DNA of 64,000 nt, from NCBI GenBank assembly GCA_030583805.1, contig CP129476.1:309453-373452 (forward strand). Direction: 5' to 3'. This document shows, in pieces, positions 6,691 to 33,579 of this stretch. Below the pieces are notes generated by a model. That model worked only from the letters and a program-made list of their open reading frames with translations, was not told where the DNA came from and made no database searches. Numbering within the stretch: the first letter of the stretch is position 1; every line of letters starts with the position of its first letter. This DNA comes from Patescibacteria group bacterium (lineage in GTDB: Bacteria; Patescibacteriota; Patescibacteriia; SG8-24; DYFX01). Both the position numbers and the translations under genes were made by a program.

Positions 6691-6917
6691 ATGTGGTTTT
6701 TTAGCTCTTTTGAGCCAAAAAACCGTATCAATGGCTATGGTAGCATACTTTGGCACTTAAAGGAAGGGGCGCGGGAAGCACGCGATCTCGACCACTCTCG
6801 CTGACACCACGACATAACAAGGGCGCCGCGCCGCTGACGAAACATCGCTCCTGTGGAAAAGCCGCGTCGTACGAGCCTGCCGCGCGAAACGCCGGAGTCT
6901 GCTATCATAGAGGCACT

Positions 6918-13418: not shown

Positions 13419-13489
13419 TCGGGGATCGTCTAATGGTAGGACAACAGACTCTGAATCTGTTTATCTTGGTTCGAATCCAGGTCCCCGAG
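13419..13489 (+). tRNA. tRNA-Gln (anticodon CTG)
   Basis: Hand-folded cloverleaf: acceptor tcgggga/tccccga, D-arm gtc-taatggtag-gac, anticodon stem acaga/tctgt with loop ctCTGaa, T-arm cttgg-ttcgaat-ccagg, discriminator G, encoded CCA at 13490-13492. Confidence 0.85.
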
Positions 13490-13664
13490 CCAAAGAAATT
13501 AAGTTCAGGTAGACCGGAACCTCCGCCCAAAACTGACGGGGTTCCAATAGACCGGAATGCCTGAAATCGAATGTGAAAGCACTGGAGAGATCCGGTGTTT
13601 TCGTTTTGACGAAGCCTTTCCTGAGGGGTACGGTGATGTCCGAATAATAACCCTAATAAAGTGA

Positions 13665-16600
13665 GTGGTGGCCAAGCCTATTAAGAGGAAAATATACGCG
13701 GCCAATCTGACCACCCTCATGGGGTTTGGCCTATTCGGCATCCTTTCGGCCGAAGCCTACTATGTTGGATCTTCCACGGCCTCCAAGCTTGTGGGTGATT
13801 TCCACAGAGGTGATTACGGATATTGGCTGGCGACCATCTGCACGGGCTACCTGCTGTATGTCGTCGCCTATTTCATCTTGAGAGGCGGTCCGGCTGCTGC
13901 TGCGAAACTGCTTAAGAGCAGGCGCGCGGATGTCGTTGGTGTCTTCGTGGCCGGAGCACTGATGAGTATCTCGTTCGGCGGATTCGGCAGTCCCCTCTAT
14001 CAGAAATTGGCATATACACTCACCGTCTATCAAATACTCACGCTCGCCCTGCTGCCATTTGCGCTGGGACTTTTGATCTTGCTCCGAGCATTGCAGCGTG
14101 GTCCGGATCGAGAGGGCTTGCCGCCGTTTTTCATCAGCGACGTTGAGCAGAAAAACAAGACTGGCGACCTACTTGACCTTGCGGATGAGGCAGATCGGTT
14201 TGCAGAGCGCGTCTGGAACAACGGCTCAATAGAAAGCATGGTGTTCGGCATTGACGCGCCATGGGGCATCGGAAAGTCATCATTCGTAAATTTTTGCAGG
14301 GAGTCATGGGAAGGAAAACACAGAGGACGGGTCATCCTCTATAATTTCAATCCCCTAAGGTATGAAGATCGGGCGAATCTCCTTGAGAAGTTCGTCGACG
14401 GCCTTGTTCGCGTCGTACAAAAACACGCTTTTGTCCCAGAGATTAGGCCACTGGTTTCAAAATATTCTCGCTTCATCAAAAGCGCCAAAGCGTCATTCAG
14501 TTTTTTGGGGGTTGATTTCGAATTGGCACCCGGCACATATACGGTCGATGATGCCTTCGCAGATCTTGAATCAGCCCTGACCGACATCGACAGAAAAATT
14601 GTCATCGTCATCGACGATCTCGACAGGTTGGATTTCTCGGCGATTAAGGACGTCCTCTCTGTGATTAAGAAGAGTTTTAACCTGCCCAATGTTTCCTACG
14701 TCCTCTGCTACGACACTGAGAATATCAATGTGCTGGAAAGGGAACGGCCTGATGTTGAGAAAGTGACGGAGTTCCTTGAGAAATTCGTCAACGTCAAGGT
14801 GGGCCTGTACCTCGACAGCGAGACGCTCGCTAAATACGTCTCCACCAATCTCGCCAGGGCCCTAGTGGGTAACTCTCAGGCCGATCCGAAGCTGGTTTCG
14901 GCGGCGGTTGGTGGTCTCATCGACATCTATAAGTCTCCCGAATTCCACCGCTACCTGCCCTTCATCGGCGATGTTAGAAAAATCAAGAGGTTCATCAATA
15001 CACTCCTGCTTCTTGAAATCGAAAAGGCTGATTTCAAGAATAGTGATTTCGACAAGCAGGACTTGGTTCATCTGCTGTTGATCTATATTAATTATCCGAG
15101 CATCTTCCGGAAGATTTATAACGCCGAGACGAATGGGCGCCGGGGGTTCTTTTCGGTCGCCATGCCCCTCGATGATAACTACCCGAAGGATCCGAGTGCG
15201 GCGCGATCAGGACTAGAAAACACCTACAAAAACTCTACGGATTACGAGGCCTATGTGAAAAAACTTACCGATAACCAGAAATTCCTGCTCGGCAAGATTT
15301 TTGACGTTCCTCTAAGGTTGAAGGACGCGAGAATTGACGGCGTCCCTCAAGAAGCCAAGCATGTGTACGCTTGTTTCAATGGGGGCGTGTTCGGCGGCGG
15401 CCAAAATCTTGAGGCCTACCTCAATTTGATCGTCAAACTTTCCAAGCCCCAAAAGAGTGGCCAGTACAAGTTTTACGCAAATCTCAAGGACGAGATCCGC
15501 GACGGAAAGAAGTCCATCGATGATGTACTGTCAACATCCGATTTTTCGTATGATTGCCCAGAGAGCAACCGCGAACAGCTGTGGAAAGTCATCATCAACA
15601 GCCTGTCGGAATTCAAGAGTGTGGTGGGTAGCAAGCTGATCGTTCACCTGCTAGGGAATATGCAGAACTATTCCCTCTTCACAAATCAGGTGATTGGCGT
15701 CGGTTTGCGAGACGACCTAGATATTTTCCTGACGAGGCTGCTCGATCAGGTGGGTTGGAAGGATCAGAAAGGCGAGCACACCGACAACACCCCAGAAAAC
15801 ATTTCTGAAATTGCCGAATGGGTCTTTGGCGAAGGGCGGCACGCTGGTCAATCGGTTCTTTTGACACTCGCCAAAGAAGACCGCGGCACCCTCGGCCTCT
15901 ATGATCTGCTTTGCTTCCGCCTCTTTTGCAGCGCCGATCGAGGGGGTGATATCTTCAATCTTTCTCGTGCACTCTCAAAGCATGGCGACCCCAACGCACC
16001 GACAGATGGTTCAATAAGGGAGATTGCTATCGGGGAAATGCGTGAAATATCGCAAGCTGTCTTCGGTATTTTCAAGTCTCAATACATCGATCCCGGAAAA
16101 AACATTTTTGATTTAATCGATGGGCTCTCTTTGGCTGATTTTGCCGGAAAATACCAAGCATACATCGAAGGAAAGGTTACATCTGGAGAGATCGAAAATG
16201 CTGAAACTACGGTTGCCGATCTTAAGTCACGCATGAAGTCATTCATCACCTACCAACTGACCAATACCTACATCAGTAGCGGCGTCGGCTGCGGTTACTA
16301 CGACCCGTCAGGCAAAGAGGACGCTGGAGGAATCAGCCACAGCGTCAATGACTACCTTTTCGGTACGTGTTTTAACCCCAGCGTCGCCGGGAAAAATTAT
16401 GAACACTTCTTGGACTACTTGCTCATAAATTTTGCCAGCACCTTTGAATCAAGGGGTGGTCGTGAATACACCCCACATATCAATGAATTCACAAAAATCC
16501 TCGACAAGTCAAAGCTCGCAGAGTACTGGCGCGAACACGCCACCACGATCAGGGGTCTGAACCTAACTGAGAAGGAAAAGACAGTGATCACCTCAAATTA

Positions 16601-16700
16601 TTCTGCTTCGTACAAAGACGATCTGGCGGGCGTGTTTCAGGTGCTGGACAAGCTCATCGAAGAACCTGTAGTCGAGGCACCTGTCGCGCCTAGCGCTTAG
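13665..16700 (+). CDS. KAP family P-loop NTPase with four N-terminal transmembrane helices
   Basis: GTG start. Four hydrophobic helices in the first ~140 aa. FGIDAPWGIGKSSFVNF (KAP Walker A GxWGxGKS) and VIVIDDLDRL (Walker B). Confidence 0.8.
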   Translation: MVAKPIKRKIYAANLTTLMGFGLFGILSAEAYYVGSSTASKLVGDFHRGDYGYWLATICTGYLLYVVAYFILRGGPAAAAKLLKSRRADVVGVFVAGALMSISFGGFGSPLYQKLAYTLTVYQILTLALLPFALGLLILLRALQRGPDREGLPPFFISDVEQKNKTGDLLDLADEADRFAERVWNNGSIESMVFGIDAPWGIGKSSFVNFCRESWEGKHRGRVILYNFNPLRYEDRANLLEKFVDGLVRVVQKHAFVPEIRPLVSKYSRFIKSAKASFSFLGVDFELAPGTYTVDDAFADLESALTDIDRKIVIVIDDLDRLDFSAIKDVLSVIKKSFNLPNVSYVLCYDTENINVLERERPDVEKVTEFLEKFVNVKVGLYLDSETLAKYVSTNLARALVGNSQADPKLVSAAVGGLIDIYKSPEFHRYLPFIGDVRKIKRFINTLLLLEIEKADFKNSDFDKQDLVHLLLIYINYPSIFRKIYNAETNGRRGFFSVAMPLDDNYPKDPSAARSGLENTYKNSTDYEAYVKKLTDNQKFLLGKIFDVPLRLKDARIDGVPQEAKHVYACFNGGVFGGGQNLEAYLNLIVKLSKPQKSGQYKFYANLKDEIRDGKKSIDDVLSTSDFSYDCPESNREQLWKVIINSLSEFKSVVGSKLIVHLLGNMQNYSLFTNQVIGVGLRDDLDIFLTRLLDQVGWKDQKGEHTDNTPENISEIAEWVFGEGRHAGQSVLLTLAKEDRGTLGLYDLLCFRLFCSADRGGDIFNLSRALSKHGDPNAPTDGSIREIAIGEMREISQAVFGIFKSQYIDPGKNIFDLIDGLSLADFAGKYQAYIEGKVTSGEIENAETTVADLKSRMKSFITYQLTNTYISSGVGCGYYDPSGKEDAGGISHSVNDYLFGTCFNPSVAGKNYEHFLDYLLINFASTFESRGGREYTPHINEFTKILDKSKLAEYWREHATTIRGLNLTEKEKTVITSNYSASYKDDLAGVFQVLDKLIEEPVVEAPVAPSA

Positions 16701-17985
16701 CCACACTTAGATGTTGGTCTGCTAGAACAATGCTAGTTTTTACACAGAGGAGAAGCTCACGCTTTTCCTCTTTTGTTCCGTTGATTAGGACGTGGCGGAG
16801 GTACTTCTTGTGATCCAGCCGAGGCATTTTTGTGCTCGCCTCTGCACCGAGCATGGATGCCATGAAACGCTGATTCCGCTCAAGCTCGTCCTGGAATTTC
16901 TTTTTTGAAACCGCGTGGTCGATCTCCAGCTCGTCGAGGATGCCGACGAGCTGTTCAATGAGCACCTCCTCGCGAACGTACGGTTCCTTGCAGTCTTTGT
17001 CGGTGGTCCGCCCACAGTGATAGTAGACGTAGCGCTGGCGCGTGCCGTCGCGTAAGCTCTTGAACTTCTCCTGCGCTGTGACGCCGGAGCCGCACGCGCC
17101 GCACTTCATGAGGCGGGTGAAGGCAAACTCTTTCGACCCCCACTTGGTCTTTTTCTTTTCCATCGCCAGCTGCCTCTGCACGTCGTTGAACAATTCCTCC
17201 GTGACGATGGACTCGTGGGCCACCGGGAACCAGTTTCCGCTTCCGCATGGATACTCGAACCTGCCGTAGTAATAGGGGTTCCGGAGCATGAGGTAAATCA
17301 TGCTTAGCGGCAGTTTCTTGCCCTTCCGCGTTTTGAACCCGACCTCGTCGAGCCATACCTTGATCTTCCTGCCGCTGTGACCGAGGTTCGAGACGCGCTC
17401 GAACATCTCCTTGATGATTGGCGCACGTTCGGGATCGAGGAGAACCTTCTGCTCGCCCTTCATCGTTGTCTTGGTGTTGAAGTACCCGAGCGGCGACTGG
17501 TTCGGCCTCCAGCCCTGCTGCACCTTGGCACGTTGCCCCCGTTTCACGTTGACACCACGGTTGTCATTCTCGAGTTTTGCCTGACTGCACAGGATCATCA
17601 GCAGGAACTTCTCGTTCGGCGAGTTGGTGAAGTGCTGGCTCGGTGTTCGGATCTCGACGAGCTTCCCTTGATCCATGAGGTCGACGAGTGCCCCCAGGTC
17701 GCCGCCGTTGCGGCTGAGTCGGTCCGGTGCCCACGTCAGGATGCCGTTGAATGTCCCGGCGCGCACATCCGTGATCAGGCGGTTGTATTCCGGACGCTGG
17801 TTCGAGTCCTTCGCGGAGTGGCTCTCGCGCCGCGTCGCCACGACCTCCAGCTTCTCACGCTCGGCGAGCTCGAGCATCTCCTTGATCTGCGCGTCGATCG
17901 ACAGCGCCTGCCGCTCGTCCTGCTCGCTCGACTTCCGGGCGTACAGGCAGTACCGAACAGGTACGGCTTCAGTTGGCTTGTTCAT
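16690..17985 (-). CDS. Large serine recombinase (resolvase/invertase N-domain + recombinase domain + zinc ribbon)
   Basis: YCLYARKSSEQDERQALSIDAQ is the catalytic Ser region. CGACGSG in the C-terminal zinc-ribbon region. 431 aa. Confidence 0.85.
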   Translation of the reverse strand: MNKPTEAVPVRYCLYARKSSEQDERQALSIDAQIKEMLELAEREKLEVVATRRESHSAKDSNQRPEYNRLITDVRAGTFNGILTWAPDRLSRNGGDLGALVDLMDQGKLVEIRTPSQHFTNSPNEKFLLMILCSQAKLENDNRGVNVKRGQRAKVQQGWRPNQSPLGYFNTKTTMKGEQKVLLDPERAPIIKEMFERVSNLGHSGRKIKVWLDEVGFKTRKGKKLPLSMIYLMLRNPYYYGRFEYPCGSGNWFPVAHESIVTEELFNDVQRQLAMEKKKTKWGSKEFAFTRLMKCGACGSGVTAQEKFKSLRDGTRQRYVYYHCGRTTDKDCKEPYVREEVLIEQLVGILDELEIDHAVSKKKFQDELERNQRFMASMLGAEASTKMPRLDHKKYLRHVLINGTKEEKRELLLCVKTSIVLADQHLSVAKR

Positions 17986-18064
17986 AGCCCTTATTTGCCC
18001 TTACAGCCCCTTAATAGAAGGCATGTAGGACATCAATGCCGCACCCCGACCGTGAAGGCTAGGC

Positions 18065-18175
18065 TGGCCTTAAAAGCTCTTTAAAGCCATATGACACCGA
18101 CGAATCTCCGAACATCCCTGGCAATCCTGATGACAAGCATGGGGAAGGCATCCGCGAGATAGCTCGGCTATGCGA
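18065..18175 (-). pseudogene. Truncated 3' fragment of a second terminase large-subunit (terL) copy
   Basis: Reverse translation gives ...LADAFPMLVIRIARDVRRFVGVIWL*, matching the C-terminus of the intact TerL (...LADAFSMLVIRVAKDVRRFVGIIWL*). About 80% nt identity to 19360-19470. Confidence 0.7.
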
Positions 18176-18304
18176 ACCATCGAGACGAGGTCGGGATGAC
18201 ATTTTTGTCCCATAACGCACCATCATCGGATATTTGACGAGGATTAATCCACATGTTAGTCTTGCACCGGCTCACAACAACCACCCGAGCCATTGGAGGC
18301 AGAA

Positions 18305-18775
18305 ATGAAGCGCATCGTTCTTTTGACGGCGGTTCTCGCATACGGCGTGTTGACCTCGGGCTGTGTCGTGGATGACGACGGCGAGGACCTAGGGGTCACG
18401 GAGCAGGAGGTTACGGTCAACGACACACTGCCCACATCTGGGAGTAAGACGGTCAGCGTAGCCGTCTATCCTGGTGCACCCTCAGACATTATCATGAGTT
18501 CTCCGTCTTCCGGCAACTGGAAGTTCGAGACGTACGGCAGCCCAATCAGTCTGGGTGGTTGCTCGGCCGGCGACTTCATCGTCTACACCTACTGGCGAGA
18601 CACAAGCGTCAGCTCGACGTGGAACTACTGGCCAGGAGGCGGGCCGGTCTGTTACCCGACATCCGGGTGGTCGACGAACCTGTACAGCGGGAGCAGCACC
18701 ATTCAGTACAAGTTCGAGTACTACGCGTACGGCGGTTATGGCGAAACCGTTTACGCGAAGTTCACGAAGCAATAG
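18305..18775 (+). CDS. Hypothetical lipoprotein (Trp/Tyr/Ser-rich)
   Basis: GGAGG SD 5 nt upstream of the ATG. Signal peptide with lipobox LTSGC. Confidence 0.6.
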   Translation: MKRIVLLTAVLAYGVLTSGCVVDDDGEDLGVTEQEVTVNDTLPTSGSKTVSVAVYPGAPSDIIMSSPSSGNWKFETYGSPISLGGCSAGDFIVYTYWRDTSVSSTWNYWPGGGPVCYPTSGWSTNLYSGSSTIQYKFEYYAYGGYGETVYAKFTKQ

Positions 18776-18816
18776 TCGAGGGCTCGTACGTCGTGCTAGT
18801 ATGTGAATACAGCACG

Positions 18817-19287
18817 ATGTTTTTAAACCCAAACCATATGTCCATGCCCAAGCGTGTCCGGGAACTACTTTCCACAGCGTCCTTGTTGTTTTTTGTGTGG
18901 CTTTCCGCATTTAGTGGCGATTTCATTGCCGCGCGCACATTCCAAATGAATGATGCCTCCATCCGCAATCCTTGGTGGTCAGTAATCGTAATAGGGTTGC
19001 TCCAACTGATGTTCATGTACGTCGGAGCGCAAGCCATACTGCATATTCTTAAACCCGGCCGCGTCAATAAAAAGCTAGGATTACTTACAGCCCTAATCGC
19101 GTGGCTTTCACTAGAAAAAGTTCTCGCGTTTCCTCGATTGCTTGCGACTCTGCTTCCCAACGGGATTATCGGTACAAACACCGCTCTTTCTACGGTTATC
19201 GTAATTGCAGCACAACTTTCGGTGACGTATCTGCTGGTGTTGATTATCTCGCGCTTGTTGCTTACGGGAGAGGGTGATAGCAAGTGA
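18817..19287 (+). CDS. Hypothetical integral membrane protein (~4 TM)
   Basis: MFLNPNHMSMPKRV... start inside the longer track ORF. Multiple hydrophobic helices. Confidence 0.5.
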   Translation: MFLNPNHMSMPKRVRELLSTASLLFFVWLSAFSGDFIAARTFQMNDASIRNPWWSVIVIGLLQLMFMYVGAQAILHILKPGRVNKKLGLLTALIAWLSLEKVLAFPRLLATLLPNGIIGTNTALSTVIVIAAQLSVTYLLVLIISRLLLTGEGDSK

Positions 19288-19369
19288 CGATTGGGAGCAT
19301 ATAGTTACCGGGAGTAGCTAATGCCTTTCTGCTTGTGACTGTCTGGCTTGTGCCGCCCTTAAAAACCCC

Positions 19370-20860
19370 TTAAAGCCAGATGATACCGACGAATCGCCGA
19401 ACGTCCTTGGCAACCCTGATGACGAGCATCGAAAAGGCGTCCGCAAGATCGTCGTGTCGCTCCGCGCCGAAGCCGACGAGCTGGCGGATCAGGTCATCGC
19501 ATCCGGTCTTCGGAAAGTAGATGTTGCCGAGTTCCATCTCTCGCGCCGCCAGCGTTAGTCGCGCCCGCTTGTCCATGCCCTCTGGACTCACGCCGTAGGT
19601 CGTGAGGTTCGCGTGCTTCATAGTCTCGATCGCCGCGCGTTGAAAGGCGACGTCCTCGACGTAGAAGCGGTGGTACTTCCGATCCGTCATCGTCTTGGTG
19701 AGCTTGGCGGCCTGGATGATCCCTTCGAACGTGAGGTGCTTGTTCGTTACGAACGGCAGGATGTAAACGCGATAGTCCTCACAGAAACCCTGTCGGTCGG
19801 ATTTCTTGTACACGGCAGCGGTGACCATCGCGGTGTAGTCAGCCGACTCGCGCTGTGAAATCGCGAGATCTATACCAGTCGCCACAAACTCGAAGTGCCA
19901 CCCCGGTTCAAGAATGTTCGGCGGCTCGTCCGGAAGGCCCGCGTATCGCTTAATCCATTCCGGCTGCACGACCTGATCTCGGTCGGGCACGATCTCCTGC
20001 ATATACTCCCTGCGAAAGGCCCACTGGTCACCGATCTTTCGCTTGAGATCCTCGATGTGCTCCATCGTCGGGAACTTGGCCGGCCACGCGGGACACCCGT
20101 CTATGACGATCGGGTACTGGCGATAAATGCCGGTCAGTTCCTTTTTCTCAATCTCGTCCTTGAGACGGGCGACAAGCGATTCCTCGTGGAGGAGGTTGCC
20201 GACGATGAAGATGTTGCAGGAGTCGCCGCCCGCCGGGATGACTTCCGATTTCAGCCATCGATATCGCTTCTCACGGATCTCGCTCGAACGAACTGAATCG
20301 AGGTCCTCGACGTCGTCGATAATGATCAGGTCGGGGCGGTTGGAGTGGTTCTTGAGTCCTCGGAGTGAGCTGTCCGCCGAAAGCGCGACAATCCTCGCCT
20401 TGTATCGCGGTAGGACAAGCGAGTTCTCGTTCCAAATATCACCCACGTTGAACGGGCCGTAGTCATTGATGAGGCGGGCGTTCGTTTCCAGCTCAGACTT
20501 TATGTTGTAGAGGATCTGTTTGGCCTGCGGCTCGGTCTTGCTGATGATCAGGATGAACTTCTTGCGTCCCGTCACCGCCGCCCAGATGGGATACGAAAGC
20601 GAGGCGATCGTGGACTTGCCCGAGTTCCTGAAGGCGACCACGACACGGAGCGGGTCTGCACATGACTCCGTCAGCCGGAAGATCTCTTTATGAAAGAGGG
20701 CGAACGGCACCGTCATGTGCTCGCCGAGATACGTCATGAAGAACCACAGATGACTTTCCGTGGTGAGACCGATCCGAAAGGCGCGCTCCTTCTCGATACG
20801 CGAGAAGGTTTCCTCAAGAGATCCGTTTTGAGGTTGAATTCTTTCCTGCATCGCCGTCAT
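19370..20860 (-). CDS. terL: Phage terminase large subunit (TerL; ATPase + RNaseH-like nuclease)
   Basis: AFRNSGKST (Walker A), LIIIDDVED (Walker B), ATGIDLAISQRESADYTAMV in the nuclease domain. Start taken at MTAMQERIQ, overlapping the terS 3' end. Confidence 0.85.
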   Translation of the reverse strand: MTAMQERIQPQNGSLEETFSRIEKERAFRIGLTTESHLWFFMTYLGEHMTVPFALFHKEIFRLTESCADPLRVVVAFRNSGKSTIASLSYPIWAAVTGRKKFILIISKTEPQAKQILYNIKSELETNARLINDYGPFNVGDIWNENSLVLPRYKARIVALSADSSLRGLKNHSNRPDLIIIDDVEDLDSVRSSEIREKRYRWLKSEVIPAGGDSCNIFIVGNLLHEESLVARLKDEIEKKELTGIYRQYPIVIDGCPAWPAKFPTMEHIEDLKRKIGDQWAFRREYMQEIVPDRDQVVQPEWIKRYAGLPDEPPNILEPGWHFEFVATGIDLAISQRESADYTAMVTAAVYKKSDRQGFCEDYRVYILPFVTNKHLTFEGIIQAAKLTKTMTDRKYHRFYVEDVAFQRAAIETMKHANLTTYGVSPEGMDKRARLTLAAREMELGNIYFPKTGCDDLIRQLVGFGAERHDDLADAFSMLVIRVAKDVRRFVGIIWL

Positions 20861-21317
20861 TTTTCGGTTTCGAGTTGGCCTCTGTCTCTGCCAGCCCAGT
20901 TTCGCCGCCGGCCGCCTCCGCGAGAAGCGCAACGGATTGTCGGATGATCTCTTTCTGTGTATCCGAGATCTCGACGGGCTCCTGCTGTTGCGGCGCGAGG
21001 AGTTCGACTTTTGTCGCGTATGCGCGGTGGTGGTGCTTGAGCCAGAAGATCACGGCCGTGAGGTTTCCTTCCCTAATGGCAGTCATGAGCTGTGACTCAG
21101 CCATGTCGTTCACAAGACCCGCGCCGGTCTCAACGGCCTCGTCGACGGCGGCGGCGAACGCCGCGTCATCCTTCCGCCAGCGGTAAAATGTTGCGCGGCC
21201 GATCCCGACCTTTTGGCAGGCTCCTTGAACGATCGGCCGCTTGCGTAGCTCTTCGACCAGAACCTCTTTCTGCTTTTCCTGCCGTATGGTGACGGCGTCC
21301 TTCTTCTCAGTCCCCAT
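20814..21317 (-). CDS. terS: Phage terminase small subunit (TerS, HTH + FWLK motif)
   Basis: HTH CQKVGIGRATFYRWRK and NLTAVIFWLKHHHRAY, resembling Terminase_2-family small subunits. Sits immediately upstream of terL. Confidence 0.65.
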   Translation of the reverse strand: MGTEKKDAVTIRQEKQKEVLVEELRKRPIVQGACQKVGIGRATFYRWRKDDAAFAAAVDEAVETGAGLVNDMAESQLMTAIREGNLTAVIFWLKHHHRAYATKVELLAPQQQEPVEISDTQKEIIRQSVALLAEAAGGETGLAETEANSKPKNDGDAGKNSTSKRIS

Positions 21318-22638
21318 ATGAGATGCGTGTGGCCTTGAGGCCTGTCAGGTTCTCCCAGCGCTTCCGGATGACCTCGGCGTACACGGGGCTTTTCTCCATC
21401 AGGAAACATCGGCGCTTGAGCTTCGTCGAAGCGATCAGCGTGCTGCCACTCCCGCCAAACGGCTCGATGACGAGGTCGCCGCGCTTCGTGAGCATCTTGA
21501 TGTATGGAATCAGGATTTCGGTCGGCTTCGTGCCGAAGATGACGCCCTGACCCGAGTGCTTTTCGTCGGACGAGCGGAACTCGATGAAGTCCGTGGGGCA
21601 GTTCTTTTTGCCCTTCTCGTAGGACTCCCATTGCGGCTTGCCGCTGATGGCGTAGAGGGCGGTCTCGTACTCCTCTTGGAGCGGGGCGTCTTCCGGCTCA
21701 TTGTTGTATGGGACGTCGCCTGACGCGCCGACCATGGCGATGTCATGCTTATTGAAGAACCGGTATTTCGACGAGAAGCCCTGATGCCGGTTTTCGAGAT
21801 GCCACACGATCATGTTCTTCACCTTCCAACGCTTCTCCATCTCGTCCCAGATCGTCCGGATGTTCTTCCAGTTTTCAAACACGATGATGGCGAAGTTTGG
21901 CTTGGCCGACGCCGCCACGCTGTTCATCCATAGCTCGGTGAAGTTGTCTGGCAGGGACTCGGTCTCGAGGTAGCGTCGGTCCCGCTTATAGCCGAAGCCG
22001 GTCACCGGATCGCCGTGCTTCTTCTTGCCCTTCAGGTAATCGAGAATGTAAGGTGGGTCCGTCATGCACATGTCGGCCTTCTCGCTGCCCATGAGCTTCT
22101 GGAATTCCGCTTCGACGGTCGAGTCCCCACACATGAGGCGACTGTCGCCGAGCGCCCAGACATCGCCCTTCTTGATCTCGATCTCGTTGATGTCCAATTT
22201 TTCGAGCTCCTTCTGTAGGTCGAACGTCTCTGGCGTATCCTCGACGTCGAAGATGCGGTCGAGTTCTTGACTCGAGAACCCGACGTCGGACAGGAATGAC
22301 TCGTCAAACTTGGCCAGCATTTCCCAATCGAACTCTCCGGTCGTGAGGTTGCTTCGGACGTTATACTCCTCGAACTCTTCCATTGTGAGCTTCCGATTCG
22401 GGACGCGCACGTCGATTTCTTCCTCCCCGCGCCCAAGCGCCAGCAGAATCTTGATCCTCTGATGCCCGGCGATGAGACGATTATCCGTATCGATCGCGGG
22501 GATCTCTACGAGATTGAATCTTTCAAGCGACCGCTTGAGCTGTTCCACTTGCTCGTCGGAAATCTTGCGAGGATTTCCCTCCCACGGCAGGATCTCCGCG
22601 ACCTTTCTTTTCTCCGTAAGCCAGTGAAGGCTGTCCAT
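21307..22638 (-). CDS. ParB-like nuclease N-terminal domain fused to N6-adenine/N4-cytosine DNA methyltransferase
   Basis: LIAGHQRIKILLALG (ParB/Srx fold), MTDPPY (motif IV DPPY) and EPFGGSGST (motif I). 11-nt overlap with the terS start. Confidence 0.85.
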   Translation of the reverse strand: MDSLHWLTEKRKVAEILPWEGNPRKISDEQVEQLKRSLERFNLVEIPAIDTDNRLIAGHQRIKILLALGRGEEEIDVRVPNRKLTMEEFEEYNVRSNLTTGEFDWEMLAKFDESFLSDVGFSSQELDRIFDVEDTPETFDLQKELEKLDINEIEIKKGDVWALGDSRLMCGDSTVEAEFQKLMGSEKADMCMTDPPYILDYLKGKKKHGDPVTGFGYKRDRRYLETESLPDNFTELWMNSVAASAKPNFAIIVFENWKNIRTIWDEMEKRWKVKNMIVWHLENRHQGFSSKYRFFNKHDIAMVGASGDVPYNNEPEDAPLQEEYETALYAISGKPQWESYEKGKKNCPTDFIEFRSSDEKHSGQGVIFGTKPTEILIPYIKMLTKRGDLVIEPFGGSGSTLIASTKLKRRCFLMEKSPVYAEVIRKRWENLTGLKATRISYGD

Positions 22639-22710: not shown

Positions 22711-23520
22711 CTATGATTTCCCACGCTTCCGGAATCGTTTTTTCCTTGTTTTCTCAAGATCCTTCACGATGTAGCGAACCGCATCAGATTTCTTGTCGGT
22801 GCCCAAAAGTTCCGATGCAATTTCGGCCGTCGTGGTCTTGTAGGGCTTCTGTTCGACCGGATCAAACTGTTCCCCCCGTCGGTACCACTCTTCGATGCTG
22901 AGATCGCGGTCGATGTGCTTCATCGGCTTGTAACGCGGCATACCCCTATGCTTTGCGAACCATTCGACCTGCTGCATCGCGAGGCGGATATCTTCTTGGG
23001 TCGGTATCGTATAGAACGTGACTGGGATGTGTCGCACCGTGCTGAGCCTTTCGTTTGATCTCAGCTCTGTCCAAGGTCCGATGACAAAATTATGATACGG
23101 GGCAGTTATCCTGCCTTGGACGATGTACGTGTCAACGTGGTTCTGATAGTTCTCCGGGAGGTTAAACTTTTCGACAATGAAACGCGCCCTGCCCGATCGG
23201 TAGTTGATGGGCACCTCCTCGCGGTAAAGGTTGATCCGCCTGTAGTACTCGTCTGAATTTATTTTCTTGGCCTTCCATTCATCGGTGATAGCTCGACCGC
23301 GGGCATAATAATCAGGCTTTCCAAGAACTGCGTCGCTGGCGGCAATCCACGAATCCGACCAGCGCTTCATGTCATCGTCAGTCTTTAACCCGCCGCCCGC
23401 GATTCCAAGCGTCTGTCGCACCTCCGCGACGATATTCTGAAACTCCTTGTCAGAAACAAGGAGTTTCATATTCGCCAAATTGGCTTCGTAGCATTTCGGG
23501 TGCTTGTGCGGCTTCGCCAT
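22711..23520 (-). CDS. Hypothetical protein (269 aa, basic C-terminus)
   Basis: Clean ORF in the low-GC island, divergent from the Type III mod gene. No motif I recognise. Confidence 0.5.
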   Translation of the reverse strand: MAKPHKHPKCYEANLANMKLLVSDKEFQNIVAEVRQTLGIAGGGLKTDDDMKRWSDSWIAASDAVLGKPDYYARGRAITDEWKAKKINSDEYYRRINLYREEVPINYRSGRARFIVEKFNLPENYQNHVDTYIVQGRITAPYHNFVIGPWTELRSNERLSTVRHIPVTFYTIPTQEDIRLAMQQVEWFAKHRGMPRYKPMKHIDRDLSIEEWYRRGEQFDPVEQKPYKTTTAEIASELLGTDKKSDAVRYIVKDLEKTRKKRFRKRGKS

Positions 23521-23765: not shown

Positions 23766-23881
23766 CTGTCTAGACCCAACCCGAACAGGGCAAGTTTTGC
23801 CTATTTCCGGATCGCGCGCATAGAGCGGCATCCGGATAAAACAATCCTCGCACGATCCGTGCTTGGGTTGGGTCTAGACAC
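23766..23881. promoter_or_regulatory. Inverted-repeat-rich control region between divergent genes
   Basis: gtctagacccaacccgaaca (23766-23786) and its complement cttgggttgggtctagac (23860-23879), about 75 bp apart. Internal palindromic tccgga sites. GGGTGTCGCT direct repeat at 23578 and 23886. Confidence 0.5.
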
Positions 23882-23940: not shown

Positions 23941-25662
23941 ATGCCTCAAAATCCTGCCCAACTAAAAGAAGGAGAGCTGCTGCTTCGTGTTGCGGAGCTT
24001 GAATCCGAGATAAAAAAGTTAAAGGAGAGAAAAAAGTACGGTCTCGTCTGGGAGGATCGGTCGGAAGACGTGGTTTTGCAATGCCGCGAAAATGTTCCGA
24101 TTCTTCAAGAATACAAGGCGCAAAAAATCGTCACTGATGAAGCAACGTCCGCAAACATCCTAATCGAGGGCGATAACTATCACGCCCTCTCCGTGTTGAA
24201 CTATACCCATCGAGAGGCTTTCGACGTAATCTATGCCGACCCACCTTATAACACTGGCAATAAAAGCTGGCGGTATAACAACGACTACGTTGAGAAGGAC
24301 GACGATTTCAAGCACAGCAAGTGGCTATCCTATATTCACAAGCGCCTCCTTTTGGCGAAAAACCTACTGACGGATTCGGGCATCCTGATATTTGCTATTG
24401 ACGATTATGAAGCCCACACCCTGCGTCTGCTCCTTGATGAGGTCATGGGTGAGGATAATCGCCTCGGCACGATAGCTGTAGTACACAATCCTCGCGGAAG
24501 AAACGACGATCAATTTTTTGCGACCCAGCACGAATACATGCTCGTTTACGCAAAAGATCATAGCAGGGCTGAAATAGGAAACTTCGAACTCACGGAAGAA
24601 GACCGCAACCAATATAAAAAACATGATGAGATTTCTCCGTACGCAGAAACGTCGTTTATGCGCACTGGAAACAACTCAAACCATCACGAAAGACCCAAAC
24701 TTTTTTACCCCATATTTTTTAATCCGAGAACCCGGAAGCTCTCTCTAAAATTAGAGAAAGGGGGCATCGAAATACTGCCAATCAACGAAGCGGGTGAAGA
24801 GAAAACGTGGCGCTGGGGTAAAGAGACTTTTGAAAGGCTGTGCGACACCGATCTTTTTGTAAAGACTGTTAAGGGCAGGGATCGGATTTTTAAGAAAAGA
24901 AGACTAACGGTCGATACGGGAAAGAAACCAAAGAGCGTCTGGTATAACTCCAGGTATGATGCCTCGACACAAGGCATCATGGTTTTGCAGGACATTTTTG
25001 GCCGCGGCAATCATTTCAATTACCCAAAATCATTGCTCTTGATGGAGGATATTTTGGAGATCACTTCAAAGCCAGACTCGCTAGTCCTCGATTTTTTTGC
25101 TGGAAGTGGCACCACTGGTCACGCCGTTCTCAAGCTCAATAAGAAAGATGGCGGCAACCGTCGCTTCGTACTGTCTACGAACAATGAAAATAAGATTTGC
25201 GAGGAGGTAACCTATGAACGCCTGAAACGCGTTATAAAGGGTTATACGAATAGCAAAGACAAAAATACTGTGGGCCTCGGCGGAAATCTGACTTACTACA
25301 AAACCGCCCTCGTGAGCATCGACCAGCTTCAGAAGGTATCTGACGAAGCAAAAATCAAGATTGCATATCAGGCAGGCGAGATGATTGCCGTCCGGGAGAG
25401 CACGCCGGATGAGTTAGAAAAAAATGACTGGTGGCAGCTGTTCGGGGGAAGCGGAAAAATCATGGCCGTCTACTTCAAGGAGGACAAGGCCAGGCTATCC
25501 GACCTCGTAAAGAAACTCGAAAAAACAGGCCGCCCGGTCGTGCTGTATGTCTTCGGTTGGGGCAAGAACGAATACAAGAACGAGTACGGGTCGGGAAAGA
25601 TCCGCGTCGAGGACATCCCCGAACCTATCCTTGAGGTCTACAAGGAACTGAACCGTCTCTAG
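23941..25662 (+). CDS. mod: Type III restriction-modification system methyltransferase (Mod)
   Basis: DVIYADPPYNTG (motif IV) and DFFAGSGTTGHA (motif I). N6-adenine MTase beta-class layout, followed by res. Confidence 0.9.
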   Translation: MPQNPAQLKEGELLLRVAELESEIKKLKERKKYGLVWEDRSEDVVLQCRENVPILQEYKAQKIVTDEATSANILIEGDNYHALSVLNYTHREAFDVIYADPPYNTGNKSWRYNNDYVEKDDDFKHSKWLSYIHKRLLLAKNLLTDSGILIFAIDDYEAHTLRLLLDEVMGEDNRLGTIAVVHNPRGRNDDQFFATQHEYMLVYAKDHSRAEIGNFELTEEDRNQYKKHDEISPYAETSFMRTGNNSNHHERPKLFYPIFFNPRTRKLSLKLEKGGIEILPINEAGEEKTWRWGKETFERLCDTDLFVKTVKGRDRIFKKRRLTVDTGKKPKSVWYNSRYDASTQGIMVLQDIFGRGNHFNYPKSLLLMEDILEITSKPDSLVLDFFAGSGTTGHAVLKLNKKDGGNRRFVLSTNNENKICEEVTYERLKRVIKGYTNSKDKNTVGLGGNLTYYKTALVSIDQLQKVSDEAKIKIAYQAGEMIAVRESTPDELEKNDWWQLFGGSGKIMAVYFKEDKARLSDLVKKLEKTGRPVVLYVFGWGKNEYKNEYGSGKIRVEDIPEPILEVYKELNRL

Positions 25663-25666
25663 TGAT

Positions 25667-27994
25667 ATGTTTCCACTCAAGCCATTCCAAGAGCAGGCGG
25701 TCGCAAAGCTGAAGAACGAGTTTCTTTCTCTTTGGAAGTCGCCTCACCATAATGTACCGCTCGTCTTCAAGTCGCCAACGGGTTCCGGCAAGACGATCAT
25801 GCTCGCGCAGTTCCTGCGCGACATCGTGAGCGATCCGCGCTTTCAAGGCAACGATGTGGCGTTTCTGTGGTTCTCGTTCAGCGAGGACTCCTACGTCCAA
25901 AGCAAGGAGAAGCTGTTCGCGTACTACGGCGGCGCTTCAGAGCTGGACCTGCTCGATCTGAACGACCTCACCCGAGGCAGGCTTCAGAAAAATAACGTCT
26001 TCTTCATCAACTGGCAGAAGATCAAGGGTAAGTCGAAGGACAGCCGAAAACTACGGCGCGAGAACGAATGGGGCCTGACATTTGATAACGTCATCAATAA
26101 GACCCACGAGGACGGACGCAAGCTCGTGGTCATTATCGACGAGGAACACGTCGGGGCGGATACGGACCTTGCGCTTGAGGTCATCGACGGCCTCATCCGT
26201 CCGAAGGTCACCATACGTGTCTCGGCGACGCCCAAGTACATTCCAAATGCGGAAGAGATCGCCGATGGGAAGGGCGGCTTCGTCAACGTAAAACGGGACG
26301 AGGTGGTTCTGGCCGGACTCATCAAGGAAAAAATTATCTTCCAGACGGAAGAAGACCTCAACAAGAAGGAGTTCAAGAGCGCCGACCAGGACGAGATTCT
26401 TCTTGAGCTTGCTTATCGCAAGCGACTCGATCTGATCCGCTGGTACAAGGAGATTGGCATCGATATCAACCCACTCGTCCTCGTCCAGCTCCCGAACGAT
26501 GATCAAGAATCGAAGACGAATGTCGCAACGAAACGCGGCATCGTTTCCGACTACCTCAAGCGGAAAGGTGTTTCGGAAAGCGAGATAGGCGTTTGGCTTT
26601 CGAATGAAAAGGTGAACCTTGAGAACATCGAGGCGAACGAGTCGCCTGTCTCTTTCCTTTTATTCAAGCAGGCGGCCGCGACCGGCTGGGACTGCCCGAG
26701 AGCGGGAGTGCTCGTCATGTTCCGCGAGATCAAGAACCCGACGTTCGCCATCCAAACGGTCGGCCGCATTTTGCGCATGCCGTTGGGTTCCCATTTTCCG
26801 CGTCCCGAACTCAACGTCGGCTATCTGTACACCAACTATAAAAGGAACGAGGTACTGGCCGAATATGCGAAATCGAAGTCCGACAACCGGCCGGCGATCA
26901 ACGGGAGCTATCGTAAAGCAGACGTGAAGTCGATCACGCTCGATTCGGTCTTCATGAGCCGTACGGACTACAACGACCTAGGCGACACCTTCCAGGCGAT
27001 ATTTGGGACGGCAGCCGATGGTCATTTCGGTATCAGCGACAAAGACGGCAAGCAGACTGCTCTCGATAAGCTCGCCAAGAAAGGCTTCGATACGTCGCCG
27101 AAGGTCACGAACGGCCTCATCGTCGGCGTCGAGATCGACGACTATGACAACTTCATCCAGGAGCTTGTCGCCGAGGGTGCGAGCCACGATCAGGAGATGT
27201 CGGAATACGACCTTGAACGCCTCTACAACCTCCTCTGCTTCAAGCTGATCGCCAAACAGACCGATGAACAAAAGAAGTTCGCGCCCGAGCGCTCTTGGGG
27301 AAAGCTCAAGACGGCGCTCAACGTCTGGATGATCGGACGTACGAGGGAATTCCGCCGGGCTGCCTACAGAATGATCGTCAATGACCTCCTGAACCCCGCA
27401 AGCGTCCTCGCACCGCTCATCGGCTCCTCGTTGGCGCTATATCGCCCTCTTCGAGAGCAAGAAGTGAACAGGCGTTCCGAGCGGTCGAAACGCACAGAGA
27501 CGATTGATCTCCCCCGCGAGGCACTGTTCTTCACTGATCAGTACACGGAGATGAAGGTGAAGAAATGCGCGATGTCGCCCTTCTACATCGAGAAGGACTA
27601 TCAAGGGGAGGATAATGAAAAGGGGTTCATTGCCTTCCTTGAGAGCCATAAGAATGTCCTCTGGTGGCACAAGAACGGTGATATCGGGAGCGAGCATTTT
27701 TCGATCTCGTACTACAACCCGGACGAAAACAAGGAGAGGCTCTTTTATCCCGACTGGATCGTGAAGACGCCTGCCGCCGTCTGGATCATTGACACCAAGC
27801 AGGGAGCGACGGCCGAGCTCGCCGACACCAAGCATAAGGCAGAGGCGCTACAGGCCTGGTTAAAGAGCAGGAAAGGCTTTGCTGGAGGCATAGCCGTTCA
27901 AGACGGCCCGAACGGGTGGAAACTGAACAGGAACTCTAAATACTCCTATGCGCCCTCGTTCACAGGATGGGAAGCCTTTAATGATTTGCTGTGA
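25667..27994 (+). CDS. res: Type III restriction enzyme Res subunit (SF2 helicase + endonuclease)
   Basis: FKSPTGSGKT (Walker A) and VVIIDEEHV (DEEH box). Immediately downstream of mod. Confidence 0.9.
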   Translation: MFPLKPFQEQAVAKLKNEFLSLWKSPHHNVPLVFKSPTGSGKTIMLAQFLRDIVSDPRFQGNDVAFLWFSFSEDSYVQSKEKLFAYYGGASELDLLDLNDLTRGRLQKNNVFFINWQKIKGKSKDSRKLRRENEWGLTFDNVINKTHEDGRKLVVIIDEEHVGADTDLALEVIDGLIRPKVTIRVSATPKYIPNAEEIADGKGGFVNVKRDEVVLAGLIKEKIIFQTEEDLNKKEFKSADQDEILLELAYRKRLDLIRWYKEIGIDINPLVLVQLPNDDQESKTNVATKRGIVSDYLKRKGVSESEIGVWLSNEKVNLENIEANESPVSFLLFKQAAATGWDCPRAGVLVMFREIKNPTFAIQTVGRILRMPLGSHFPRPELNVGYLYTNYKRNEVLAEYAKSKSDNRPAINGSYRKADVKSITLDSVFMSRTDYNDLGDTFQAIFGTAADGHFGISDKDGKQTALDKLAKKGFDTSPKVTNGLIVGVEIDDYDNFIQELVAEGASHDQEMSEYDLERLYNLLCFKLIAKQTDEQKKFAPERSWGKLKTALNVWMIGRTREFRRAAYRMIVNDLLNPASVLAPLIGSSLALYRPLREQEVNRRSERSKRTETIDLPREALFFTDQYTEMKVKKCAMSPFYIEKDYQGEDNEKGFIAFLESHKNVLWWHKNGDIGSEHFSISYYNPDENKERLFYPDWIVKTPAAVWIIDTKQGATAELADTKHKAEALQAWLKSRKGFAGGIAVQDGPNGWKLNRNSKYSYAPSFTGWEAFNDLL

Positions 27995-28461
27995 ACAAGA
28001 GTCGTCACCTTGAGGTACTAATAGAATCCGTGAGAGATAAGTGTGACTTCCTAGCTGAGGCGAACAACACGTTAGATGGGAAAGCTGCGACATTAATGGG
28101 CTTTGAGATCACCCTCGGCATAGGCTACGCGTCATTGGTACTTGGAAATGTGGGTGGTACTAATCATGACGAGGGTGTCGCTGGGTTATTCATGTTGGGC
28201 ATGTCTGTAGCTTCTCTGCTGTACGTGAACTGGCCCCGAGATTACACGACGACCTGCGTCGATCTTTTCGAACACACAGAATACCTGGAGAAGGGGACGG
28301 GAGATTTGTTGCTCCAATTAACGAGTGATGCACAGAACGCCTTCTCTCAAAACAACCAAAAATTGAAAACCAAGGCCAGGTTCTATAAAGCTGCGATCGT
28401 CCTGCTTCTCGTCGCTACATTCTTGTTCCTGATGTCAAAATCACCAAACTTCTATGTCTGA
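27991..28461 (+). CDS. Hypothetical small membrane protein (3 TM), translationally coupled to res
   Basis: ATGA-type overlap with the res stop. Hydrophobic segments ITLGIGYASLVLGNVGG, VAGLFMLGMSVASLLYV and AAIVLLLVATFLFLM. Confidence 0.55.
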   Translation: MNKSRHLEVLIESVRDKCDFLAEANNTLDGKAATLMGFEITLGIGYASLVLGNVGGTNHDEGVAGLFMLGMSVASLLYVNWPRDYTTTCVDLFEHTEYLEKGTGDLLLQLTSDAQNAFSQNNQKLKTKARFYKAAIVLLLVATFLFLMSKSPNFYV

Positions 28462-28644: not shown

Positions 28645-30009
28645 TCATACGTGTGCACATTGTAGTACCGCCACAAACAGACTCTCTACCTCATTCTCGA
28701 TTTCATTAGGCCCAACTCTATAAGACGACGATAAGGGATCCGAAATCACAATATAACCCGTCGGGGCGAAGGCACTAGTTGGCAACATAAAAAACTTCTC
28801 GACCTGCTCAGCGCCGGTGGTATCCACCGCCACTGCCAGTACTCTGTCGAACCAGCGCTGATGCTCCTTGATCAAAAAACACCATCGCCCGATATTGTCT
28901 GGCCCTACGGTACGAGCGGCATAAAGTACGGGAATCATCCGGGCAAAACGGATTGCCTCGGCGGAATCCAAGCCCTTCCGCACTAAGTATGAACGCAGTT
29001 CCTTGAGAACAGATTTGCGCGCCTTCCGAATAGCTCTCTCGCCAGCTTTGCATCTGGATGGGAGAATCCAATAAAGCCTTTCTTGGGCGAGCTCGAAGGT
29101 CTGCTTGTCGATAATTGCTGGAATGGCGTTTTCTGTTTTGATCCATTCGCTACGCGGATTCTTCCGATGTCCCTTCTTCAGCTTATTCCAAGTTTTGTTA
29201 TATACGAGTGTGCCGGTATAGACCTCGTTCATCAGTATTCGAATGATCTTAGTTTTGTTCCATGTCCCGCCATTGGGCGAACGGACTTCCGATGCATTGA
29301 GCATCCCAACGATGCGATCCAAGCCCAGCCGTCTCGTCACGAAATACTGAAAAATATCCTGTACGGTCTGGGTTGTTCCATCATCAGCAGGAACGAATAC
29401 GACACGTTCATTCGCTATGCACTTGTGCTCGCCTTTTCTCAAAACCCGCACCGGCTTCTTATCGATGTCTAGAAGAAATCTGGCCAATCCGAAGCAGGCA
29501 ATGCCACCGTTTGAATAACCCTGCTGTGATGTTCTTATACATCCCTTGGAGACCTTGTCACTAAGCTCGGCGCTGTACTGGCCCGCCATGATTCGATGGA
29601 AAGGATTTTCCATCTGCGCCATCGGTGACTCGTCCGGCTTCGGAAGACCACGAGAGAGGTAGACGACAGGCCTCCCGTGTTTTTTGCAGAGAAACTGATA
29701 ATGAGCTGACTCATCCTGATCTTGAAAGCGCCCCCACCGGGACACGTCGAGGACCAATACAAAGTCGAAGACGGGTGCCTCTGGATTCAAAACCCACTCG
29801 TCAAACAACCTTTGGAATCCAGGTCGCCCGGCTGTGAGGCCACTTTTACCCTCATCGACTTCCTCATGAATGATGTCGATGCTGTGCCGATCGGCGAATC
29901 GCTGTACCTGTTCTCGTTGAATTGGGACCGAATTCTCCTGTTTATCCTCCGCTGAATGACGATAATACGCAACGGCCTTTTTCCTAGTGACGCCTCCAAA
30001 CAAGCTCAT
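28645..30009 (-). CDS. Large serine recombinase (second copy, distinct sequence)
   Basis: AVAYYRHSAEDKQENSVPIQ is the catalytic Ser region. Recombinase domain with a Cys-containing C-terminus. 454 aa. Confidence 0.85.
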   Translation of the reverse strand: MSLFGGVTRKKAVAYYRHSAEDKQENSVPIQREQVQRFADRHSIDIIHEEVDEGKSGLTAGRPGFQRLFDEWVLNPEAPVFDFVLVLDVSRWGRFQDQDESAHYQFLCKKHGRPVVYLSRGLPKPDESPMAQMENPFHRIMAGQYSAELSDKVSKGCIRTSQQGYSNGGIACFGLARFLLDIDKKPVRVLRKGEHKCIANERVVFVPADDGTTQTVQDIFQYFVTRRLGLDRIVGMLNASEVRSPNGGTWNKTKIIRILMNEVYTGTLVYNKTWNKLKKGHRKNPRSEWIKTENAIPAIIDKQTFELAQERLYWILPSRCKAGERAIRKARKSVLKELRSYLVRKGLDSAEAIRFARMIPVLYAARTVGPDNIGRWCFLIKEHQRWFDRVLAVAVDTTGAEQVEKFFMLPTSAFAPTGYIVISDPLSSSYRVGPNEIENEVESLFVAVLQCAHV

Positions 30010-30022
30010 AAGACCGCCTCGC

Positions 30023-30889: not shown

Positions 30890-31099
30890 ACAGGACAAAG
30901 AGCAAACGAGTTGTACCCGTTTTTACCCTTTTTTATGTTTTACGCTCGGAGTGATTATTTTCACTCCCGAATGGGAGGAAGTTAACGAAGTGGGTGTTTT
31001 TTGTCAAGAAAATATAGGAGTGTTCGTGACATTGACGCATGGGGCCTGTCAGCGTACAGTTGAGTTATATTTGTACGCATTATAAGCTTACGTAAGACT

Positions 31100-31450: not shown

Positions 31451-31454
31451 CACG

Positions 31455-33417: not shown

Positions 33418-33579
33418 GACCGGGTGTTTGGCGACTCTTGAGACACTTCGCAGCTAGCCCATTTCAGTCCCAAGGTGTCTCAATTAGCCTTGACCGGAAC
33501 GTCTCCTGAGAATCGCTGAAGGACTGTCTCAAAAAGTCCTAACACATACGGGTCCTGACAGGTACGTCGAGCCATGAAA

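Follow-up and report, generated by a model that had tools for sequence, protein, structure and literature searches.

We analysed a 64-kb stretch of DNA from a Patescibacteria group bacterium (contig CP129476.1, positions 309,453 to 373,452), hereafter termed the window, which carries a terminase-bearing element in an island next to a tRNA-Gln gene. [quoted passage not shown] Island proteins were searched against Pfam, PHROGs and NCBIfam, defence models were assigned by PADLOC and tRNAs by ARAGORN. Relatives were collected by a profile scan of IMG/VR with a TerL alignment, which returned 479 related stretches, of which the best 80 were examined. We built our own maps of open reading frames (ORFs) for 91 loci (L001-L091) and hidden Markov models from the window proteins; the element clade consists of 55 non-redundant loci. 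Two further loci, L093 and L094, are island-free relatives, with an RluF identity to the window of 85% and 76%, respectively. The core genes and the ends of the island are the following.

13493-33567, no strand: the whole island, about 20.08 kb, delimited by the break in synteny with L093 and L094 and by a drop in GC
13419-13492, plus strand: tRNA-Gln(CTG), detected by ARAGORN; integration took place at its 3' end (attB side)
13486-13492, plus strand: left copy of the 7-bp direct repeat CGAGCCA, at the end of the tRNA, from the empty-site comparison
33568-33574, plus strand: right copy of CGAGCCA, after which comes the same hairpin as downstream of tRNA-Gln in the empty site
13493-13527, plus strand: element terminus adjoining the tRNA, a candidate recombinase half-site, conserved by blastn in L002 (through 13606) and L003
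16690-17985, minus strand: large serine recombinase (integrase), core, with Resolvase, Recombinase and Zn_ribbon_recom domains
18063-18160, minus strand: remnant (98 nt) of the 3' end of a second terL, directly upstream of the recombinase, with whose block it has remained connected; it encodes LADAFPMLVIRIARDVRRFVGVIWL and a stop, a TerL C-terminus
19370-20851, minus strand: TerL, core, a T7-like ATPase with an RNase H-like nuclease (phrog_38, Terminase_6C, termin_lrg_T7)
20814-21317, minus strand: TerS, core, with an N-terminal helix-turn-helix (HTH) (PF13022 and seven PHROG TerS families)
21307-22638, minus strand: ParB_N-like domain fused to an N6/N4 DNA methyltransferase (ParB-methylase), core (phrog_498 2e-70, phrog_620, PF01555)
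22711-23520, minus strand: 269-aa all-alpha protein with a basic C-terminal tail, fast-evolving, with only nine homologues

The ORF of the large terminase subunit (19370-20932, minus strand) matches phrog_38, 'terminase large subunit', with an E-value of 1.1e-72, and Pfam Terminase_6C with an E-value of 3.9e-5, where its 24.1 bits lie barely above the gathering score of 22.6. Its N-terminal half matches the NCBIfam model termin_lrg_T7 (1.8e-12), and the large terminases of T7 are, by sequence and weakly so, its closest solved relatives. Translation likely starts at the ATG at 20851, which yields a product of 493 aa. An identical protein from a metagenome-assembled genome of a Patescibacteria group bacterium is deposited in GenBank as WKZ29436.1, annotated as 'hypothetical protein' only. 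The two halves that define a TerL, an N-terminal Walker A/B ATPase and a C-terminal RNase H-like nuclease with its acidic residues, are both present. Moreover, Walker A K79, Walker B D179/D180 and the nuclease residues D328, D338 and D467/D468/D471 are invariant among 24 TerLs of 43-69% identity. TerS is small, has an N-terminal HTH and is encoded directly upstream of terL. It matches PF13022 at 1.2e-9 (38.8 bits against a cut-off of 27.9) and, at best, a PHROG 'terminase small subunit' family at 2.5e-10; a sequence search of the PDB with TerS gave no match. The TerS gene shares bases with terL on one side and with the ParB-methylase gene on the other, so that the three form a tightly coupled set. 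No PADLOC defence model matches TerL or TerS, and the methylase alone is recovered, by generic methyltransferase models. Thus, profile searches and invariant catalytic residues bear out the complete TerL and the TerS that the initial annotation had called, while the families it had guessed need correction: TerS matches PF13022 and not Terminase_2, and TerL matches Terminase_6C. Its coordinates are right for the TerS-TerL pair and too narrow for the unit, to which the ParB-methylase (21307-22638), the 269-aa gene and the recombinase (16690-17985) belong as well; it had overlooked the ParB-methylase and the recombinase as conserved core, and also the terL 3' remnant at 18063-18160 and the Patescibacteria host.

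The boundaries of the island follow from comparison with empty sites. The alignment of L093 and L094 to the window breaks off at position 13492, where the CCA of tRNA-Gln ends, and starts again at 33568. In L094, the empty site reads CCCCGAGCCA followed directly by TGAAAAAACACCCG, and the right junction of the window reads GTACGT-CGAGCCA followed by TGAAAAAACGCCCG. Therefore, the insert spans 13493-33567 and comes with a 7-bp repeat of the tRNA end. GC is 0.48-0.57 in the island and 0.59-0.64 in the flanks. L002 and L003 are found at the same tRNA-Gln and share with the window 35-114 nt adjoining the tRNA, with different cargo between recombinase and tRNA. In seven loci (the window, L003, L004, L025, L029, L033 and L051), tRNA genes for Gln, Asn or Ser adjoin the recombinase-side end, their 3' end facing the element. 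The element is a discrete unit that is inserted site-specifically at tRNA 3' ends. The predicted attB, as restored by excision, would read GGTCCCCGAGCCA followed by TGAAAAAACGCCCG, and the predicted attP of the circular form CCTGACAGGTACGT-CGAGCCA-AAGAAATTAAGTTCAGG. L093 carries another insert of 2.5 kb (4364-6708, with ORFs of 603 aa and 157 aa that have no Pfam match) on the same 3' side of its tRNA-Gln (6812-6885), and the site is therefore a general insertion hotspot.

Two candidate repeats at the ends were rejected. The att repeat is not a more extended copy of the tRNA-Gln 3' end, as only the 7-bp CGAGCCA is repeated and internal 10-mers with one mismatch occur at chance rate. The octamer GACCGGAA is present at 13512-13519, 13550-13557 and 33492-33499, always on the plus strand and within about 75 nt of the island ends; its seven occurrences in the window, against 3.9 expected, are not a significant enrichment overall. 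It should also be mentioned that L002 (CAYFZV010000053.1), whose TerL is 97% identical, is labelled 'uncultured Gammaproteobacteria bacterium', and that its tRNA-Gln flank is 96% identical at the nucleotide level to that of the Patescibacteria genome. The label marks either a mis-binned contig or the name of the epibiont's host.

None of the island ORFs matches a portal, capsid, protease, tail or lysis family in Pfam, PHROGs or NCBIfam, and the absence of portal, capsid, protease and tail genes asserted in the initial annotation stands. The two regions in which it had suspected a capsid or portal homologue, 22711-23520 and 18305-19287, are not structural either: neither has a family match, and the former has no fold match. 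The portal and HK97-fold major capsid genes that follow terL in a prophage are thus found in the island neither intact nor as pseudogenised traces. The same three databases give no match to a primase, helicase or Rep in the island ORFs, and the neighbours of eight related loci show none. As a control we used the phage-type loci, whose TerLs are 31-36% identical to that of the window (42% for L043/L044) and are followed by an ORF of 680-850 aa and a long same-strand array. Portal families (phrog_2662/12) were recovered downstream of TerL in 23 of these 24 loci, and major head families in most, which indicates that the approach detects structural genes when they are present. In the element-type loci, 136 representative flanking ORFs between 200 and 620 aa long, together with 16 of greater length, gave no portal or head family among the 25 leading families listed. 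A phmmer search with head-module proteins of the sister phages against 1865 element ORFs gave a single marginal match. It concerns a 160-aa ORF directly after TerL in L054 (7781-8260, minus strand), matched at 6.9e-5 to the portal of L043, which could be a portal vestige or a chance match. Finally, one element-type locus shows a lone 'tail protein' PHROG match.

TerL homologues at 97, 71, 61, 61, 58, 48 and 47% identity are encoded in the same order on one strand, ParB-methylase, TerS, TerL and large serine recombinase. In some of these relatives a second methyltransferase gene lies beside that of the ParB-methylase, and the recombinase gene is found either within about 100 nt of terL or after unrelated genes. 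Precomputed Pfam assignments of every neighbour in these seven contexts include no structural domain. Across the clade, the ParB-methylase lies upstream of TerL in all 55 loci and TerS in 50 of them, and a same-strand recombinase is present downstream of TerL in 34 of the 41 loci with at least 2 kb of downstream sequence. TerL and recombinase are separated by no more than 250 nt in 20 of 39 loci, and the widest gap is 8.3 kb. The TerS-TerL pair of the window thus belongs to the conserved core of a widespread family of mobile islands that lack capsid genes and carry anti-phage cargo. The named sources of this family are Patescibacteria and Moraniibacteriota, the named members coming mainly from Patescibacteria, that is, from the Candidate Phyla Radiation (CPR). 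On three IMG/VR contigs of 25-55 kb, two family elements are found together (L013 with L031, L033 with L036, and L028 with L047), so one small genome can hold several copies. At L006/L007, an element whose TerL identity is 58% has RND efflux, FecR, DsbD and CMAS neighbours that are atypical for Patescibacteria, and in L006 an S24 LexA/CI-like repressor, a candidate induction switch, adjoins the core. The neighbours of L006 suggest a non-CPR host; the family may extend beyond the CPR and may be SOS-inducible.

In a neighbour-joining tree of 84 TerLs, those of all elements form one clade, which is deep (37-97% identity), has the phage loci L042/L043 as its sister group and branches from within the phage TerLs. 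Many of the sister phages have a ParB-methylase directly upstream of TerS/TerL. Because of this nesting and of the shared ParB-methylase, the backbone corresponds to the 5' end of a phage late operon. These sequence relationships indicate that it descends once from such an operon start (ParB-methylase, TerS, TerL), with everything from the portal onward lost. The ratio of non-synonymous to synonymous substitutions (dN/dS), measured against L002 as the one comparison partner (89% nucleotide identity) at a dS of 0.36-0.88, is 0.034 for TerL, 0.096 for TerS, 0.040 for the ParB-methylase and 0.050 for the recombinase, and the reading frames of all four core genes are free of frameshifts and internal stops. 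Such values indicate strong purifying selection on the four genes and rule out neutral decay.

Of the core genes, that of the ParB-methylase is the most conserved, with 82-92% amino acid identity where TerL has 60-97%. It is still 82-84% identical where TerL is down to 60-70%. That its conservation goes beyond that of TerL, TerS and the recombinase hints that it is central to the success of the element. The recombinase has the three domains expected of a large serine recombinase (PF00239, PF07508 and PF13408). In some of the loci the core begins with the 269-aa gene, which L003, L009, L036 and L038 have as well as the window. An AlphaFold2 model of its product is helical and of medium confidence, with a mean predicted local distance difference test score of 66.6. 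We considered this protein as a hidden capsid, portal or regulator and found no Pfam match at an E-value up to 5 and no fold match in BFVD or the PDB; a C-terminus resembling sigma region 4 was an impression only, which nothing supported. The divergent intergenic region between this gene and the Type III methylase gene contains a 24-nt inverted repeat (23767-23880, 88% complementary, with a 66-nt spacer), possibly an operator or a module boundary. A scan of the core for promoters and terminators gave nothing above the shuffled background.

The remnant at 18063-18160 is a direct repeat (D1) of 19352-19449, to which it is 83% identical. L002 has a single terL 3' copy, which leads directly into the recombinase gene. 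The three terL 3' copies, A and B in the window and the one in L002, are about equally diverged (A-B 83%, A-L002 87%, B-L002 81%), and relative to L003 the recombinase block is 84% identical at the nucleotide level and the TerL block 74.5%. Therefore, the remnant is a scar that joins blocks of different ancestry and no fresh target duplication. Duplication of the terL 3' end as a general site of cassette insertion was rejected: it is absent from every other locus with cargo between TerL and recombinase, and the scar is therefore lineage-specific. The window element is a chimera, its core stemming from one lineage and its recombinase and cargo block from another, with the 1.2-kb insert and the remnant in between. 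Seven loci (L018, L019, L022, L024, L026, L030 and L057) have two complete TerLs in tandem (e.g., L019, 1620-3233 and 3251-4813), which are 55-58% identical to each other and have intact ATPase and nuclease motifs in both copies. Compared across loci, the recombinase-proximal copies are 84-95% identical and the TerS-proximal copies 55-93%. Recoding of UGA (code 25) as the cause of the 'split' TerL ORFs was rejected, since these are two complete tandem genes. The simplest common route to the remnant and to the dual TerLs would be the fusion of tandemly integrated elements by deletion. A deletion ending before the second terL would yield dual TerLs, and one ending inside it would yield the remnant seen in the window.

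The rest of the island consists of cargo and of genes that may belong to a neighbouring element.

13665-16700, plus strand: KAP-family P-loop NTPase (PifA/QatA-like), cargo (PF07693 9e-41; PADLOC PifA 4e-29)
18161-19351, plus strand: 1.2-kb insert between TerL and recombinase, a cargo slot; L002 lacks it and has the recombinase immediately after TerL
18305-18775 and 19009-19287, within that insert, plus strand: lipoprotein-like ORF and small membrane ORF, without family matches
23941-27994, plus strand: Type III restriction-modification system, cargo, with mod at 23941-25662 and res at 25667-27994 (PADLOC MTase_III 9e-89, REase_III 6e-15; Pfam N6_N4_Mtase and ResIII)
27991-28461, plus strand: small ORF
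28645-30898, minus strand: second, unrelated large serine recombinase (28645-30009) and ParB-like protein (30023-30898), from Pfam and NCBIfam
31100-32177, plus strand: XRE-type HTH repressor (31100-31450; HTH_3 7.5e-13) and HExxH ImmA/IrrE-like protein (31455-32177)

This last pair has weak capP and phrog_2439 matches and a HEAGH motif read from the sequence, and is a possible induction switch. The second recombinase and its ParB-like partner have no counterpart in the other loci, and in several of these an extra recombinase is seen 3-8 kb upstream of the core. The region 28645-32177 is probably a separate neighbouring element stacked in the island. The island as a whole is probably composite, made up of two or three serine-recombinase elements that have piled up at the tRNA-Gln hotspot. 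Outside the island, the window holds housekeeping genes (HSP70, CysRS, DNA polymerase III delta' and a P-type ATPase). One host-region protein, from an ORF of at least 150 aa outside the island, matches Peptidase_S74, an intramolecular chaperone of endosialidases and tail fibres, with an E-value of 5e-14, and is possibly a large surface protein and not a phage product.

Throughout the family the cargo is hypervariable, as 312 flanking ORFs fall into 239 clusters and near-identical cores carry different cargo (the window and L002). Most of it is concerned with defence: restriction-modification systems of types I, III, ISP and IIG, OLD/AAA_15/AAA_21 proteins, GmrSD, SNase and HNH nucleases and, moreover, ThsB-TIR, AbiU2, SMODS/SLATT/SAVED, KAP/PifA and a reverse transcriptase. 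L009 and L011 carry transporters or metal resistance instead. Cargo is also found on both outer sides of the backbone. Its turnover is fast and involves mostly restriction-modification and abortive-infection genes.

How does the element compare with known satellites? PICIs are defined by an integrase, an AlpA/MerR/Stl regulator, a primase-replicase, in some cases capsid morphogenesis genes, and terS, and they use the TerL of the helper (PMC10085698). Like PICIs and the Staphylococcus aureus pathogenicity islands, the element is a small integrative island at a conserved site, with its own terS, with accessory or defence cargo and without capsid or tail genes. It differs from PICIs in that it lacks a primase-replicase and a capsid-size gene and has a full TerL, a large serine recombinase and a core ParB-methylase. 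An integrase is found at one end, as in PICIs, here in the form of the large serine recombinase; SatelliteFinder treats serine and tyrosine integrases as exchangeable (PMC10085698). No AlpA/MerR/Stl-type regulator adjoins the recombinase, and the XRE/ImmA-like pair is found some 13 kb from it and may belong to the neighbouring element. The capsid-forming PICIs (cf-PICIs) are the only described satellite class listed with terL together with terS; they also encode capsid, portal/protease, head-tail adaptor and connector genes among 11 core components and steal tails only (PMC10085698). In the island, by contrast, capsid, portal/protease and head-tail genes have no match, and none is found in the related loci among the 25 leading families listed. 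The PICI/satellite-like label of the initial annotation is therefore favoured in its second half, for which comparative genomics argues, and not as membership of the PICIs or cf-PICIs, given the lack of a primase-replicase and of capsid genes.

Other satellites resemble the element in single traits. The PICI-like elements (PLEs) of Vibrio cholerae integrate by a large serine recombinase, whose excision factor comes from the helper phage (PMC6002521). Serine-recombinase integration is what the element shares with them, and PLEs act as anti-phage defence. They have a replication initiator and are not known to encode a terminase, and they bear no relation to the element in host, gene content or integration site. 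[quoted passage not shown] PICMIs of Vibrionaceae have a reduced gene content and no capsid-remodelling genes (PMC10803314), a minimalism that the element shares. In VEIMEs and tycheposons, terS or capsid genes occur alongside tyrosine integrases and genes for replication. Finally, temperate Caudoviricetes (L042/L043, L059-L091) have a TerL of 31-42% identity, often a ParB-methylase upstream, and TerS in the same position; there, however, TerL is followed by a portal (phrog_2662/12) and a major head protein, whereas the element has cargo and the serine recombinase. Full-text searches of one literature library gave no account of an element that combines ParB-methylase, TerS, TerL and a serine recombinase, in Patescibacteria or elsewhere, an absence that is no proof of novelty.

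Taken together, these sequence comparisons lead us to think that the element is probably a satellite, one that would bring along a complete terminase and with it enter the procapsids of a helper. The recombinase would excise and integrate the element, perhaps with a directionality factor from the helper phage, as in PLEs (PMC6002521). TerS would recognise a pac-type site on the element, and TerL would cut the DNA and pump it into procapsids of a co-infecting or resident helper phage with a fitting portal, candidate helpers being relatives of the sister-clade phages. The methylase would mark the DNA, which would then survive restriction in the next host, and the satellite would pay its host with defence genes. 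A broader proposal, which we stop short of calling probable, is that these are previously unrecognised, abundant 'terminase-only' satellites, equipped with a TerS+TerL holoenzyme, sometimes with two different TerLs, and a protective ParB-methylase, that parasitise helpers without reshaping capsids and are major carriers and shufflers of restriction-modification and abortive-infection genes in the tiny genomes of Patescibacteria.

Several points weigh against a satellite with its own terminase. No helper phage is found within the window, no recombination directionality factor or pac site was recognised in the element, and a search of 92 sequences (the window and L001-L091) for terminal direct repeats, as expected of circular or excised forms, found none. 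The lack of a replication module leaves the packaging substrates, normally concatemers, without an explanation. To our knowledge there is no characterised satellite class that has terL and lacks capsid genes, so the mechanism is without direct precedent. As to the data, ORFs in the related loci were called by a crude longest-ORF method, a rare structural gene could escape a survey of the leading families, the TerL tree has no support values, and membership in IMG/VR is a viral prediction and no proof of particles.

One alternative, which we judge unlikely, is that ParB-methylase, TerS and TerL form a defence or interference module that acts inside the cell against phages, the recombinase merely conferring mobility and transfer taking another route. 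The methylase might mark self DNA while a TerS-guided TerL motor-nuclease destroys unmarked DNA of the invader, or a decoy terminase might jam or mis-load the procapsids of the invader. The module is always found among defence genes, its most conserved gene is the methylase, the pairing of a methylase with an ATP-driven translocase-nuclease is reminiscent of how Type I/III restriction-modification works, and no replication or helper-related genes are seen. However, the ParB-methylase, in some cases TerS, and TerL are also present in bona fide phages with portal and head, where they serve packaging, and TerL and TerS match none of the PADLOC models. Moreover, the constant association with an integrase and with tRNA sites is more in keeping with a mobility backbone than with one of many defence systems, and interference with helper packaging would be a normal by-product of a satellite anyway.

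Another alternative, in our view quite improbable, is headful packaging in situ from the integrated element, similar to lateral transduction or to gene transfer agents, with capsids from a phage elsewhere in the genome, transfer of the downstream cargo together with adjoining host DNA, and the recombinase acting only after arrival. This would agree with the lack of a replication module, with the lack of circular forms in the terminal-repeat search and with the position of the cargo directly downstream of terL, in the usual packaging direction. The precise site-specific ends and the empty sites show, however, that the element moves as a discrete unit, and that part of the core which lies upstream of the pac site would be left out of a single headful unless the element had first been excised or amplified. 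Finally, the decaying prophage of the initial annotation, the functionless leftover of a temperate phage after deletion of its structural genes, is highly improbable: the module derives from a phage late operon and bears one obvious scar, the terL 3' remnant, but an identical gene subset in the same order is kept in 55 independent loci, their TerLs form a single deep clade with invariant catalytic residues, the uninterrupted core genes have dN/dS values of 0.03-0.10 at the dS given above, and some members have two intact TerLs.

Should the element's own terminase package it into foreign capsids, satellites are able to bring the motor themselves and take the shell from others, and in that case tandem TerLs could fit more than one helper portal. 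The predicted attB, attP and junction sequences make excision directly testable in reads. For viral catalogues, the best 80 of the 479 IMG/VR stretches related to TerL are mostly capsid-less islands and not phages; if the satellite reading is true, many TerL-based 'proviruses' in CPR genomes and in IMG/VR are satellites, not phages. The family would provide a precise, tRNA-targeting serine integrase family. It would also give the Patescibacteria, whose phages and routes of gene transfer are barely known, a defined vehicle for restriction-modification and abortive-infection systems.

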